This document shows positions 27,434 through 33,406 of a stretch of 64,000 nt of DNA, piece by piece. The translations under genes and the position numbers were made by a program. Below the pieces are notes generated by a model. It saw only the letters and a program-made list of their open reading frames with translations, searched no databases and was not told the origin of the DNA. Source of the DNA: an uncultured Alphaproteobacteria bacterium (GTDB taxonomy: Bacteria > Pseudomonadota > Alphaproteobacteria > UBA7879 > VGCX01); assembly GCA_913061155.1 (NCBI GenBank), contig CAJXSI010000001.1, positions 13,955 to 77,954 on the forward strand, written 5' to 3'. Each line of letters starts with the position of its first letter. Positions within the stretch are counted from its first letter, which is position 1.

Positions 27434-27828
27434 AATAATCACGGTATGCGCAAATCGCATTTGATTAAGGATATTTTTTGCGTGTACATTGTTTTTTTAA
27501 CATGGAGGAAAAAATGAAAGGGCCCATTCGCATGTGAAGTGCGCCAAAAGAAGTTTCATTCAGGTCTTCGTAAAACACTTCTGCTAGCGTTCTATAATCC
27601 AGGATTGTTTTCTAAAGAAGAAGTATTATATAAAATATATCAATAACTGGATAGGCGAATTTTTTTAATGATTCCCGTTAGCTTGTTAAGAAAATGTCAA
27701 TGTGATGTCTTTATAACATTATATGGTACAGCCCCTTAAATAATTCTTGGGAAATATTGTGGGAAATGATATCTTTCAGTAAATCTATTTTGAAAATATA
27801 AAAGCACGTGCAACAGAAAAAATCAATT

Positions 27829-28572
27829 ATGAAGATATCTTTAGTATTATTAACAACATTATTTTGCATCCTAAATTATCAAGTTGATGCCGCTGCCGCT
27901 GCCGCTGCAAGTGAAGCTCTACCTGAGTCTGATCCTAAGTGGGGCGTTTCACGCCGTAAAGGAAAAACTCTTTTATTGACAACCCCAGATTTTAGTTTTG
28001 ATAAGAGACTTTTTGGTTCCCCCAGTATGAACTTTGAGGATGGGATTCTACTTGAGCTTGTCCAAAAACTCGCCGAAATATACGGGTGCACTACTGAAAA
28101 AGTGAGGAAATCAAAAAAGAGAGAATTCGATACAGCTGCTGGAGAAGGGACTCCTTATATTTTCTTTGAGCCTGGAGGAAATCCTTCAAAAACTTCTTTT
28201 TATCCCAAGGATATTAAAGAACCGAAGGGCCTGCGGTTAGATGTTGAGGGGAATGTGACAACTCCTGCTAAAAAAGGTTTAAAGTATTGGGAGGATGCTG
28301 CTTCTGGAGGTGCTTCTTCGGAATCAAGAGTGGAGACTCCCACGCACGTAAGTATTCAGTTTCAGTATGGTACAGGTCGGCGACCTTCTAGTGGGGGCGC
28401 TTATGCTGCTGTTCACGTAAAAAAAGGAATAGCATATGCCCCACTTCACCTTGTGTACTGCATAATCTGGAGCCATTATGGAAAATCAACTTTAGCTACA
28501 GTAAATCCACCAGCTATTCGCACTGATTACTCAGATGATCCAAAGGAAAAAGCAAAGAAATATGGGAAATAA
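27829..28572 (+). CDS. Secreted hypothetical protein with a poly-Ala stretch after the signal peptide
   Basis: MKISLVLLTTLFCILNYQVDAAAAAAAS... No known domain. Start chosen at the ATG; the ORF track begins at a GTG at 27808. Confidence 0.4.
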   Translation: MKISLVLLTTLFCILNYQVDAAAAAAASEALPESDPKWGVSRRKGKTLLLTTPDFSFDKRLFGSPSMNFEDGILLELVQKLAEIYGCTTEKVRKSKKREFDTAAGEGTPYIFFEPGGNPSKTSFYPKDIKEPKGLRLDVEGNVTTPAKKGLKYWEDAASGGASSESRVETPTHVSIQFQYGTGRRPSSGGAYAAVHVKKGIAYAPLHLVYCIIWSHYGKSTLATVNPPAIRTDYSDDPKEKAKKYGK

Positions 28573-28693
28573 GAACCCATGTAAAGAAGGGGGGGCATTG
28601 TTCCCCTTTTTTACTATCGTAAACAATATATAGATTGACTGCCGTTTTTCTGGTTTGTATCCTTGTTCTTAGTGAGAATAAAGAGGAGAGGTC

Positions 28694-28921
28694 ATGAAAA
28701 TTAAAATCTTAGTGCTTTTAATAAGTTGTCTATCAATAATTTCTATAAATTCTACGGTTGCTGCTGAGGCTGATGGGGCGAAACAAAAAAGTGGAAGCAA
28801 GTCCAGAGTACGCGTGGGGAGTAATGTATCAACTGGTTCTGCAAGGAGAGATATGGGGCTTAGAATAAGAATACCAGATTTGAATGGTGCCGAAAGGTCA
28901 ACATATGGATTTTCCAGATAA
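28694..28921 (+). CDS. Small secreted basic peptide (75 aa precursor), second member
   Basis: Strong SD AAGAGGAGAGG, a signal peptide ending ...NSTVAAEADGA, and an Arg/Ser/Gly-rich mature region. Same architecture as 21708-21953. Confidence 0.5.
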   Translation: MKIKILVLLISCLSIISINSTVAAEADGAKQKSGSKSRVRVGSNVSTGSARRDMGLRIRIPDLNGAERSTYGFSR

Positions 28922-29016
28922 TAACATTAGGTATCAACCCCTAGAATAATTTTTCCCGGAGTGTTGCAAGGTGCGATTTTTTGTCGATTTTTAAATTTGT
29001 ATTGTGTGGATTCATA

Positions 29017-30633: not shown

Positions 30634-30671
30634 ATATTAAATTTACTATTTTAGGGGCTTAAAATACAAGA

Positions 30672-31343
30672 TTAAATTTCTTTTCGAAAGATCGCCCGGT
30701 CTTCGGCTGTGTGATATTTACCGGCTTTATACGTTTCAAAATCTTTTTGCTTCCAAGTCAATGCAACATACCCTGTTGTGACGGGTTTTTTGTTTTTTGG
30801 AAACAGCCCAAGAATTTTTTCTTGCGCTGTTTTTGTTTGGCTTTCATCATCTACCAAGATTTCAATTTCTACGAAGTTGCCTAAGTTTTTTACCTGGTCC
30901 ACGCAAATGGTTGTTGTTCCTTTTTTATAGGTCTCCCTGGTTTTATCCACCGTGATTGATTGTGAAAGATTGTTTTGGGAAAGAAAAGAATCAAATGAAT
31001 TAACCCCATCTTTGTTTAATCCAAGTAGATCTAAAAGATCATGCAGGGCAGGGATTTTTTCAGCTTTAAAAGGAATATCAAAACTATATTCATTACAGTG
31101 GGTATACTCTTCAGAAAAACGTTCAGACTGGATATCTCGCATATTAAATTTGAAATCCAGGACATCTTTGTTTCGAGCCCTTATAAAAATACCTTTTTTA
31201 AATAAGTCATTTTTTGAGTTATCATAATAGATGTCTTCTAAACGGTTTGTTGAATCATATGAAAACCCTTGATCCAATACTGCCTTGATATCATCTTCAC
31301 TATTAACCTCAAATTTTAATTCAACTTCTATTTGTTTCATCAC
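30672..31343 (-). CDS. CYTH-domain protein (CyaB/thiamine-triphosphatase-like triphosphate tunnel fold), putative
   Basis: N-terminal IEVELKFEV matches the CYTH E-x-E-x-K signature. Acidic residues recur on alternating strands. Lies 3 nt downstream of the 620-aa secreted protein gene. Confidence 0.45.
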   Translation of the reverse strand: MMKQIEVELKFEVNSEDDIKAVLDQGFSYDSTNRLEDIYYDNSKNDLFKKGIFIRARNKDVLDFKFNMRDIQSERFSEEYTHCNEYSFDIPFKAEKIPALHDLLDLLGLNKDGVNSFDSFLSQNNLSQSITVDKTRETYKKGTTTICVDQVKNLGNFVEIEILVDDESQTKTAQEKILGLFPKNKKPVTTGYVALTWKQKDFETYKAGKYHTAEDRAIFRKEI

Positions 31344-31346
31344 AAC

Positions 31347-33209
31347 CTATTCTTCTAATTTTTTAAGGACATCTTCATAAGATTCAAACTTTGTTGCCCA
31401 ATCTAAGCCAATATTGCCAGGCCAAGTTGGTTTCGCCACAGGGATCTCTTTCTTCAAAATTTCAAAAAACTCTGGGCTAACCAGTTTGGTTAATTGGGTG
31501 ACTGGCATATTTTTTAATTTATTGATGACTTCAATCCCTTTTTTGGGAGGTATCTTAGACCCTTCCTTCCAGTTATCTCTAAGAGAATCATGAAAATCAA
31601 CCGTTTTCCGATCAAGAAACCTTATGGCTTTGATGAGCGCTTGAAATTTTTTATTGGGGTTATAAAGCCTGTATATAGATGTGCCTTTGGGGCTGACAAA
31701 ATCAGGGGTGTGAGTATCTTTGTAAAATTCTATAATAATCTTTTCAATTGCTTCACTGTAGGGTTTTGATGTTAATAAATATGGAGCTGTCCCATCTGGT
31801 ATTTCAAACCCTTTAAGATAGTCAGGAATGAAACTATCTGTTCGTTCGTCAAGCTTTTTAACATTATCAATTTGTTCAAGAATGTCCCTTGTTGCAGGAA
31901 GGTCATCGGGATACACTTCACGGAAAAGGTTATAACGTGTCACTTGACGTAACTGATAATCACTAAGACGATCAATAGACTTAATCACTTGAAGTCTTTT
32001 TTCTAAATTGTACATAAAGGGAATTTTTCTGGCAATTTGAAGCCACAGATCAAATTTTTCACCATTTAAAAATACAGCATTGCTGTATGTCTTGGCTTTT
32101 TTTCCAAAATTATTTTTACTCAAGCGGACAACTGCCTTCAATAATTCTAAGCGTTTTTCTGCAGTAATGCCCGTTGTGGTCATTTCTGTGACGATCCTTT
32201 TTATTGTATCTGCTTGGCTAGGTTCCAGACCTCTTAAAAGCTCATCCACTTTTTTCCTGACATCAGGGGATATAGATTTGTCATACCACAGTTTTTCATG
32301 TCTTTTCCCAAATTTAGTATTTTCGCTTTTTGTTGCTTTCCAACCCCCGTCAGGTGCAAATTCTTTTTCCAATATTCCTTTTGTTTCTTTTAAGGCTTTG
32401 CCAAAGCTGATTTTTAAGGCTTTTTCAGTGTTAAGTTTCTTCTCTTGTACAGTTTCTGGAAAGTGGAAAAAACTAAATTCATTTTTACTAAATTCGATAG
32501 ACGTTGGGGCTTTCCGCCCGTTATCTTCATGAATGAATTTTACTTGCCGGTGTAGGATGTTTATAAGCCAATACAACAGCTTTTTATCTTTCTCTGTTTG
32601 TGCCTTATCAAGTTTTTCTAAAGTTGATAGGCCATATTTGTCAAAAGCTTTTTCATAGGAAATACCATCAAATTTCATGTCTTTATTTGCATTAAGGCAC
32701 TGTTCAGTTGATTTATTGCTGCATACCTTGCGCCCATCCAGCACATCAGATGAATCGCTGGCTGCTTTACAGGCATAATATATATAAGGGTCTTTACAGT
32801 TTGATGCGTTACAAACAGAGGAACATGCCTTGTTTCCACCGCCAAAACCAGTATCAATTATGTTTCCACAAGCATACAAACCAATTTGGCACATGTTATC
32901 GACACCTAATAATTTTTCTTTATTGTCTGTATATAGTTCAAAATTATGGGCAGTAACGTGTTGCCCAAATTTAGTTGCTGCAATTATAAGAAGAGGCCCC
33001 TTTGATCCAATTATTGTGGATTTTGAAGATCGTTTGATGGATGGTTTTGGGCATTTTTTATTTTTTATAAGCGTGATATAGTTTGCACATGTTTTGAACA
33101 TGGCATAAATATTGGGACGTTCTGCATAAAGGCTGCTATTGAAGGCGCTTGCTGTATTGGATAAAGCCAAAAACCCCGCCACCAATAAAAATATTCTAAT
33201 TTTTTTCAT
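31347..33209 (-). CDS. Large secreted hypothetical protein (620 aa) with a Cys-rich N-terminal region
   Basis: Signal peptide MKKIRIFLLVAGFLALSNTASA. Cys cluster in residues ~40-170. No recognisable catalytic motif. Confidence 0.45.
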   Translation of the reverse strand: MKKIRIFLLVAGFLALSNTASAFNSSLYAERPNIYAMFKTCANYITLIKNKKCPKPSIKRSSKSTIIGSKGPLLIIAATKFGQHVTAHNFELYTDNKEKLLGVDNMCQIGLYACGNIIDTGFGGGNKACSSVCNASNCKDPYIYYACKAASDSSDVLDGRKVCSNKSTEQCLNANKDMKFDGISYEKAFDKYGLSTLEKLDKAQTEKDKKLLYWLINILHRQVKFIHEDNGRKAPTSIEFSKNEFSFFHFPETVQEKKLNTEKALKISFGKALKETKGILEKEFAPDGGWKATKSENTKFGKRHEKLWYDKSISPDVRKKVDELLRGLEPSQADTIKRIVTEMTTTGITAEKRLELLKAVVRLSKNNFGKKAKTYSNAVFLNGEKFDLWLQIARKIPFMYNLEKRLQVIKSIDRLSDYQLRQVTRYNLFREVYPDDLPATRDILEQIDNVKKLDERTDSFIPDYLKGFEIPDGTAPYLLTSKPYSEAIEKIIIEFYKDTHTPDFVSPKGTSIYRLYNPNKKFQALIKAIRFLDRKTVDFHDSLRDNWKEGSKIPPKKGIEVINKLKNMPVTQLTKLVSPEFFEILKKEIPVAKPTWPGNIGLDWATKFESYEDVLKKLEE

Positions 33210-33406
33210 TTTATGCCTCCCTAATCTTAAAATAGGATACCAGAGTTTAAAAACGAGTTAAATTTATTTTTAAAAGTTTCTTGATTTTTCACTCAAGAAA
33301 GGGCATTTTTCAAGTACAAATTGGGGGTTAAGTCACAATTTGAAATATTTATTGATTTTACGAAATACCTTTTCAGCACCATATTAAAATCTGAAAATAT
33401 TAATTT

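Follow-up and report, generated by a model that had tools for sequence, protein, structure and literature searches.

Flexible genomic islands (fGIs) occupy fixed chromosomal positions and exchange their cassettes by homologous recombination; these cassettes are near-identical when shared and their distribution is disconnected from phylogeny (PMC4898812). The locus described here is a block in the genome of an uncultured alphaproteobacterium, situated at positions 27434-33406 of a window of 64,000 nucleotides (the whole stretch analysed, from contig CAJXSI010000001.1), where it extends from the end of sdhB to tRNA-Arg(CCG) (Table 1). It encodes a secreted-looking orphan protein of 247 amino acids (p247), a small secreted-looking peptide (p75), an ATPase with a DUF4143 domain, a zf-CHCC zinc-finger mini-protein, a CYTH-domain protein, and a secreted-looking protein of 620 amino acids (p620). 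The gene content was determined from a listing of open reading frames (ORFs), which left over no further ORF of at least 70 amino acids, and from domain scans of the six gene products with Pfam, NCBIfam, and PHROGs; these bore out the content, coordinates, and strands previously given by a reading of the DNA alone (the sequence-only reading). Comparison with relatives indicates that the block is probably a flexible genomic island of small size. Its chromosomal position is fixed within a clade of uncultured alphaproteobacteria whose guanine-plus-cytosine (GC) content is low. The presence of GcrA in the window, and an sdhB that is at most 76% identical to that of any named genome, mark the organism as an uncultured alphaproteobacterium.

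Contigs of relatives were found through sdhB homologues. Six related lineages (L082, L084, L085, L093, L095, and L097) covered the locus, making seven with the window, and the flanking genes gave a tree of the form ((window, L095), L093), (L082, L097), L084, L085. Nucleotide identity in the flanks amounted to 98% between the window and L095, 96% between the window and L093, and about 90-94% between L082 and L097. In every lineage, the region between sdhB and the tRNA gene, which is followed by a gene for a DegT-family aminotransferase, was differently filled. Lineage L085 contained zf-CHCC and CYTH, L097 a frameshifted p75 followed by zf-CHCC and CYTH, and L082 p76, zf-CHCC, CYTH, and p620. 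The gene order was p174, p80, zf-CHCC, CYTH, and p624 in L084; p247, p75, zf-CHCC, and CYTH in L093; p188, p75, DUF4143, zf-CHCC, CYTH, and p620 in L095; and p247, p75, DUF4143, zf-CHCC, CYTH, and p620 in the window. Hence, zf-CHCC and CYTH stood side by side in six of the six covering relatives, and five of these, all but L085, also carried p75, in one case frameshifted. The DUF4143 gene occurred in the window and L095 only (99% amino acid identity), being absent from L093, L082, L097, L084, and L085, and p624 of L084 is a counterpart of p620 with 42% identity. Variable genes were found at an equivalent position in different lineages, between the anchors sdhB and tRNA-Arg/DegT that all seven have in common. 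The comparison shows a conserved backbone of sdhB, p75, zf-CHCC, CYTH, tRNA-Arg(CCG), and DegT, on which three cassettes vary independently.

The supposition of the sequence-only reading that the block was acquired as one piece did not survive this comparison. The block was not present or absent as a single unit in the relatives; its parts varied independently, with zf-CHCC and CYTH constant and the three cassettes each having their own distribution on the p75/zf-CHCC/CYTH/tRNA-Arg backbone. Conservation across the family extended to backbone genes totalling about 1.1 kb, but not to the three cassettes. Likewise, the statement that no gene of the block belongs to a core pathway needs narrowing; accessory, lineage-restricted genes, mostly with exported-looking products, are present, but zf-CHCC and CYTH were kept at this place in all six covering relatives. 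A seventh sdhB relative on a short contig (L092, 87%) carries an MFS transporter gene after sdhB. Three more distant sdhB homologues (P0011, P0013, and P0007) are followed by unrelated genes and are uninformative for this clade. None of the at least 80 more distant GTDB loci listed carried zf-CHCC, CYTH, or DegT at a distance of up to 10 kb from sdhB; these loci represent distant genomes, with an sdhB identity of at most 76%, and serve as a negative control only.

Lateral exchange is documented for p620 and CYTH. Nucleotide identity between the window and L082 was 67-79% in the flanks and mostly 92-98% from about 30700 to about 33225. In the sliding identity, the step at about 30700, in the 3' end of CYTH, was sharp, and the high level lasted to about 33225, a short distance upstream of the start codon of p620. 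A divergent stretch of about 45 bp (33226-33267) comes next, and then a conserved one (33268-33325) that includes a palindrome. The synonymous divergence (dS) between the window and L082 was 0.16 for p620 and 0.30 for CYTH, versus 1.1 to >2 (saturated) for the flanking genes GT9, Maf, GcrA, epimerase, sdhC, sdhD, sdhA, sdhB, and DegT. The p620 proteins of the window and L082 shared 92-93% of their amino acids, and p620 was absent from the sister lineages L093 and L097. The CYTH tree was incongruent with the flanks, nucleotide identity being 92% for the window and L082, as against 84% for the window and its sister L093 and 83% for the sister pair L082 and L097. In addition, CYTH was the most diverged gene between sister genomes, with a dS of 0.43 between the window and L095 (background 0.02-0.15, most genes 0.03-0.06) and of 0.74 between the window and L093 (background 0.1-0.2), and it contained a mosaic patch (30755-30934) in which the window resembled L082 rather than L095. 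Lineage L082 differed from its sister L097, which lacks p620, in exactly this segment (82% identity). The low dS and high identity of p620 and CYTH, as opposed to the diverged flanks, therefore point to a recent cross-species exchange by homologous recombination. The simplest reading is that p620 was carried between species by homologous recombination anchored in CYTH/zf-CHCC and in the tRNA-Arg promoter. Hence, horizontal acquisition, as it had been put forward before, applies to p620 and its linked CYTH allele, but the movement took place between sister species of one clade and was not an import from outside.

A different history would be one in which the clade ancestor already possessed the six genes, which were later lost by independent deletions only, without lateral transfer. 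Such a history would agree with the finding of p620 homologues in always the same slot, with the host-like composition of the cassettes, and with the 35-45% identity among p620 classes, which suggests a long residence in the clade. However, it leaves unexplained the dS of 0.16-0.30 for p620 and CYTH where that of the flanks exceeds 1, as well as the window CYTH gene resembling the one of L082 more closely than the one of its own sister L093. Moreover, L095, despite being 98% identical to the window, has the first-slot type of the distant L084 and not that of the window, and the DUF4143 gene is confined to the window and L095. Loss as the sole process is thus regarded as unlikely.

Returning to the flexible island, a first variable site (slot 1) follows sdhB. 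It spans 27521-28555 in the window, versus 498 bp in L095 that encode an unrelated secreted-looking protein of 188 amino acids (p188), and here, as for the other two cassettes, the indel breakpoints were mapped within a few bases. The left breakpoint lies directly after a common ribosome-binding site (RBS) and ATG AAA, and the right one at the stop codon, upstream of a common terminator (28589-28612). On the RBS and start codon that drive p188/p174 in L095/L084, the window retains a relic ORF of seven codons (MKGPIRM plus stop, 27514-27537), and judging from the alignment this mini-ORF is a scar of cassette replacement. The p188 protein has a homologue in p174 (174 amino acids) of the distant L084, and it is not related to p247; slot 1 is empty in L082, L097, and L085. 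The sequences of p247 and p188/p174 are unrelated, yet they use the same RBS/start codon and terminator and both possess signal-peptide-like N-termini. In p247, exactly seven consecutive Ala codons (27889-27909) come after the N-terminus MKISLVLLTTLFCILNYQVDA. No homologues of p247 outside its own 90% cluster were found among 5.8e9 proteins, a scan of viral contigs (IMG/VR) was negative, and a single-sequence AlphaFold model was unusable, with a predicted local distance difference test score (pLDDT) of 32. Slot 1 thus contains one of two non-homologous kinds of gene for a secreted-looking protein, either p247 or the p188/p174 type, or no gene at all, between the same RBS/start and terminator.

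A second variable site (slot 2) lies between the convergent genes p75 and zf-CHCC, where it takes up a 1.5-kb insert with one gene for an AAA ATPase-PD-(D/E)XK nuclease. The insert (28955-30475) corresponds to 8 bp in L093, and no target-site duplications or inverted repeats were seen at its junctions. The earlier view of the DUF4143 ATPase as accessory cargo was confirmed, as the gene is strain-variable and missing from the sister L093, whose flanks are 96% identical. Its product matches the PADLOC hidden Markov model (HMM) PDLC04790 of PDC-S01 (E 1.8e-143, 476 bits; residues 1-411 versus profile positions 11-419 of 422), which shows it to be a member of this candidate defence family. The family consists of an ATPase fused to PD-(D/E)XK and is a widespread, unvalidated defence candidate proposed through guilt by embedding (PMC12988326); DUF4143 itself has been classed in the PD-(D/E)XK superfamily (PMC3424549). 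Common features of the window gene and PDC-S01 (AAA_14 + DUF4143; COG1373) are the full-length HMM match, the two-domain architecture, the strain-variable single-gene distribution, and intact catalytic motifs, namely Walker A GARQVGKS (G24-S31), Walker B LVAIDE (residues 72-77), and D342...E356-V-K358. It differs in being neither inside nor beside any recognised defence system. Homologues with at most 44% identity occurred on 387 plasmid records, and no close relatives were found on the IMG/VR viral contigs. The PDC-S01 gene may act as a stand-alone nucleoside triphosphate-dependent nuclease against invading DNA.

A third variable site (slot 3) lies between CYTH and the tRNA-Arg promoter, where a 2-kb cassette supplies p620, a fast-evolving, presumably exported, cysteine-rich protein. 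The cassette at 31341-33325 of the window corresponds to 161 bp in L093, the spacer in L093 and L097 measuring 130-161 bp, and p620 is found between CYTH and the tRNA-Arg promoter element wherever flanking sequence is available. This element (33330-33366), the right-hand anchor of the variable region, is conserved in the window, L095, L082, L084, L085, and L097. The protein possesses 10 cysteines between residues 41 and 171 that are kept in all alleles, and its alleles form three classes, with an identity of 35-45% between classes. At genus-level distance, its nonsynonymous divergence (pN) was 0.37, versus 0.04-0.22 for the other genes compared. An AlphaFold model was all-alpha (pLDDT 57) and had no fold match; Pfam and NCBIfam gave no match and a PDB profile search returned nothing, even at E <=10. 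A word-indexed search recovered three clusters among 5.8e9 proteins. A HMMER profile search gave five matches among 1.84e9 cluster representatives, two of which were discounted (one fragment of 74 amino acids and one spurious helical-repeat match to an SLH protein). Scans of metagenome contigs yielded nothing or only the already known JGI contig, and a p620 scan of the IMG/VR viral contigs was negative.

As a side observation, a perfect 8-bp inverted repeat, TTTCTTGA-N8-TCAAGAAA, precedes the p620 start by about 70-90 nt (33277-33300). It is kept in the class-A p620 cassettes (window, L095, and L082, with one loop change) and absent from L084 and from loci without p620; this palindrome could be an operator. 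Furthermore, two p620 alleles that are 68% identical coexist in sample SRR29340315 on contigs L100 and L101, both of which start in the tRNA-Arg promoter element and end in CYTH, suggesting that strain-level polymorphism fragments the assembly graph at the p620 locus.

Among described systems, the locus resembles the additive and replacement fGIs of Alteromonas (PMC4898812). Both are found at a fixed position across strains and species, and both contain phylogeny-independent cassettes that are near-identical when shared (p620 of the window and L082, with a dS of 0.16 versus >1 for the flanks). Both also display non-homologous genes in one slot (p247 versus p188), exchange through homologous recombination on conserved neighbours, and products that are probably surface-located or exported. 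Differences are the size and content of the cassettes, which here are single genes of 1-2 kb and not glycan gene clusters of >=10 kb, and which encode orphan proteins and not glycosyltransferases. In addition, a tRNA gene is adjacent here, but no tRNA-derived repeat or integrase accompanies it, and the organisms are uncultured and represented by metagenome-assembled genomes (MAGs) alone. Cassettes would be spread and lost by homologous recombination on the conserved flanking genes, a process seen for p620 and CYTH and probable by extension for the other two, and site-specific integration at the tRNA would not be involved. The secreted orphan proteins may be envelope or extracellular proteins, with a presence or absence and an allelic diversity kept up by biotic interactions at the strain level, for example recognition by phages or grazers, or competition.

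The position of the block next to a tRNA gene had been counted among the signs of horizontal acquisition. Elements that target a tRNA normally leave their repeat 3' of the tRNA. Here, the block abuts tRNA-Arg(CCG), which is literally true, but does so on the 5' side, and unlike an integrated island it comes with neither an integrase nor an attachment (att) repeat. The Pfam, NCBIfam, and PHROGs scans of the six ORFs detected no integrase, transposase, or phage domain, and a repeat search at the locus found nothing. Repeats of the tRNA-Arg ends, for which the sequence-only reading had suggested a search, did not turn up; the longest tRNA-Arg k-mer match within 26000-40000 was 9 nt, and none occurred at the boundary. 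Located at the same position in all relatives, tRNA-Arg(CCG) is part of the backbone and not an integration target. A single horizontally acquired island at this tRNA, carrying an exported-protein or effector module, would have in its favour the features it shares with tRNA-targeted integrative islands, namely tRNA adjacency, accessory genes, and a GC content below that of the immediate flanks, besides its orphan secreted proteins and a DUF4143 gene that is common on plasmids too. Set against these are the missing integrase or recombinase domain, the missing tRNA-derived direct repeat, the 5' location, and the native GC at third codon positions (GC3) and codon usage. Conserved genes make up part of the interior, with zf-CHCC and CYTH in situ in all six covering relatives and p75 in five, and the three variable parts differ in distribution. 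Moreover, no secretion system, eukaryote-like domains, or host-association signal were found in the six ORFs or in the scanned neighbours in the window. Altogether, such an island is extremely improbable.

Composition adds little to this question. The GC content of the block was 0.360, compared with a window mean of 0.395, 0.429 for sdhCDAB, and 0.439 for DegT-tuf, which places it among the lowest 0.6% of 6-kb windows. The block is thus more AT-rich than sdh and tuf, as had been noticed, but this is weak evidence, since the region of 9.4-16 kb of the same window is equally GC-poor and holds the core genes LysE, SLT transglycosylase, and Def (peptide deformylase). The low GC content relative to the flanks is due to the conserved neighbours sdhA, sdhB, DegT, and tuf, in which GC is unusually high at each of the three codon positions, and most so at the first. 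The GC3 of the block genes was 0.26-0.31, compared with a range of 0.21-0.44 in the window, 0.31-0.32 for rpoB/rpoC, and 0.21-0.35 for ribosomal-protein genes. In Karlin codon bias, p620, DUF4143, and CYTH ranked 9, 25, and 28, respectively, among 43 genes, and p247 alone was atypical, with rank 42 of 43, beside tuf. As GC3 and codon bias are host-like, p247 excepted, composition leaves no foreign mark on the block. Elsewhere in the window, 9400-16000 (GC about 0.36) contains ORFs without a Pfam match at 9440-10138 and 13596-14600 and two short ORFs with a GC content of about 0.30 (14664-14948 and 15120-15527), near tRNA-Arg(ACG) (13495-13571), and it may be another flexible spot.

The p75 peptide, which has the N-terminus MKIKILVLLISCLSIISINSTVAA and the conserved motif SRVRVGS...GLRIR.P...TYG, is 93-97% identical in L093 and L095 and has recognisable homologues in L082 (76 amino acids), L084 (80 amino acids), and L097 (frameshifted). 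The product of 30672-31340 is a member of the CYTH / triphosphate tunnel metalloenzyme family. It shares with CyaB (class IV adenylate cyclase) the CYTH domain and a distant similarity to solved structures (PDB entries 3n0y, 2fjt, and 7ns8). However, it scores below the cut-off of the cyaB equivalog TIGR00318 (47.1 versus 57.95 bits; a partial match, residues 93-180) and is longer (222 versus about 180 amino acids).

It may be asked whether p620 and CYTH form a functional two-gene module, consisting of an exported sensor or effector and a nucleotide cyclase or triphosphatase, that moves as a unit because its parts work together and not simply because recombination is anchored in CYTH. In the window, L082, and L095, the p620 stop is only 3-6 nt from the CYTH start, the co-transferred tract spans both genes, and CYTH alleles co-vary with the presence of p620. 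Conversely, the two genes are 120 nt apart in L084, CYTH is kept with its own upstream spacer in L093, L097, and L085, all of which lack p620, its constant partner is zf-CHCC and not p620, and p620 has no domain linked to nucleotide signalling. A functional module is therefore quite unlikely. A further idea, speculative and of rather low probability, is that p620 is an unseen type of exported surface or extracellular determinant with a polymorphism under frequency-dependent selection, for instance a factor in competition or a receptor or decoy for phages. In that case, p620 and a matching CYTH allele for nucleotide signalling would move between species as a functional pair, and the locus would be a miniature biotic-interaction island with two more orphan secreted proteins and a defence gene.

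Several points weigh against the interpretation as a flexible island with exported and defence functions. First, p620 occupies the same locus in every carrier, and its patchiness could be largely differential loss of an old resident gene. Second, the DUF4143 and p247/p188 junctions are uninformative, and illegitimate recombination or simple deletion is possible there. Third, the class-A p620 alleles have a mean dN/dS (ratio of nonsynonymous to synonymous divergence) of about 0.23-0.27, which is purifying selection and not obviously diversifying. Fourth, the export of p247, p75, and p620 is predicted from their N-terminal sequences only. Fifth, the defence role of PDC-S01 is that of an unproven candidate; no other PADLOC defence gene flanks the gene here, and one PDC-S01 representative gave no protection against T4, T5, and T7 in E. 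coli B (bioRxiv 10.1101/2024.09.26.614923). Lastly, all sequences are metagenome assemblies or MAGs and none comes from an isolate.

The metagenomic origin of all data raises the possibility of chimeric contigs, produced in assembly or binning by joining co-occurring strains, and assemblers do struggle here, as two contigs of one sample, L100 and L101, terminate precisely in the conserved flanks. However, second assemblies, where retrieved, matched at 100%; this was the case for the window (ENA contig L001, ERZ27299678:k119_12385), L082 (ENA; L083 from Logan and L099 from JGI), L095 (NCBI; L096 from Logan), and L097 (NCBI; L098 from Logan). Moreover, the shared p620 alleles are 4-8% apart in amino acids and so do not represent the same reads used again. 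Also, the sdhB proteins of L093 and L085 occur on several contigs, and the proteins of the window also on an NCBI contig. An artefact of this kind is very improbable.

Table 1. Features of the variable locus and its borders (positions in the window).
Feature	Position	Strand	Remarks
sdhB	26645-27433		left flank
Spacer downstream of sdhB, common to relatives	27434-27520	+	alignment of window, L095, L093, and L084
Conserved RBS and ATG AAA	27500-27520	+	in relatives, start of the gene for the 188/174-amino-acid secreted-looking protein
Slot-1 replacement cassette with p247	27521-28555	+	comparison with L095
p247, orphan, predicted secreted	27829-28572	+	signal-peptide-like N-terminus MKISLVLLTTLFCILNYQVDA
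Intrinsic-terminator-like hairpin and T-run	28589-28612	+	common to both slot-1 cassette types
p75, small, predicted secreted peptide	28694-28921	+	clade backbone; N-terminus MKIKILVLLISCLSIISINSTVAA
DUF4143 single-gene insertion	28955-30475	-	8 bp in its place in L093
AAA_14 + DUF4143 gene	29017-30255	-	Pfam E 8.5e-27 and 4.5e-43
zf-CHCC zinc-finger mini-protein	30463-30633	-	backbone; Pfam E 3.5e-13
CYTH-domain protein	30672-31340	-	backbone; mosaic allele linked to p620; Pfam E 6.2e-20
Recombination tract	30700-33325	none	identity to the L082 lineage
p620 cassette	31341-33325	-	spacer of 130-161 bp in its place in L093/L097
p620 gene, 620 amino acids, predicted secreted	31347-33209	-	N-terminus MKKIRIFLLVAGFLALSNTASA
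Conserved element upstream of tRNA-Arg, putative tRNA promoter	33330-33366	+	right-hand anchor of the variable region
tRNA-Arg(CCG)	33407-33483	+	backbone; ARAGORN and Rfam

With respect to the surroundings of the block, sdhCDAB is located between envelope-sugar genes (23021-34644), with GT4, GT9, and NAD-epimerase genes upstream and the DegT aminotransferase gene downstream, and the tuf-secE-nusG-rplKAJL-rpoBC cluster follows this region directly. An Rfam scan of 20-40 kb returned tRNAs only, and a promoter scan of the locus scored no better than shuffled sequence. Among the intergenic regions that had been described as long, gaps of 395 bp and 95 bp do exist, but only the former is really long. 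In every lineage, the DegT start codon lies 0-17 nt after the 3' end of tRNA-Arg(CCG), the junctions being 33483-33499 in the window, 14145-14161 in L082, 15787-15803 in L084, and 7022-7040 in L085. In the window, the DegT ORF is open from 33484 onwards, and the ATG at 33499 is probably the start that is kept in relatives. This closeness implies a tRNA-mRNA co-transcript that needs 3' processing beside the start codon. The window also contains two tuf genes (34954-36144 and 50889-52079), both of 396 amino acids and with a GC content of 0.457 and 0.456, respectively. Contig L001 stops within the first copy, and its final 119 bp match both copies; duplication of tuf hence causes breaks in short-read assemblies.

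Two relatives showed local peculiarities. In L084 only, non-coding stretches of about 0.4-0.5 kb (11720-12205 and 12400-12790) surround zf-CHCC; they contain no ORF of more than 69 amino acids, and an imperfect inverted repeat of 35 nt is present at 11834-11868/12013-12047. In L097, the p75 homologue (10850-11139) is split over two frames, one of which encodes the signal peptide and the other the mature part; it is a pseudogene or else reflects a frameshift error in the MAG.

The three clade-restricted, exported-looking proteins (p620, p247/p188, and p75) and the stand-alone PDC-S01 gene, together with sister genomes that naturally possess or lack them, would be good test material. The locus is also a warning that tRNA adjacency and a GC dip are insufficient to call an integrated island. 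The genome plasticity seen here is of an ordinary bacterial kind, in unusually clear detail. It illustrates, in compact form, the diversification of small genomes in uncultured bacteria that proceeds without the machinery of mobile elements, namely by swaps of single-gene cassettes between conserved anchors, even across species with about 75-85% nucleotide identity.

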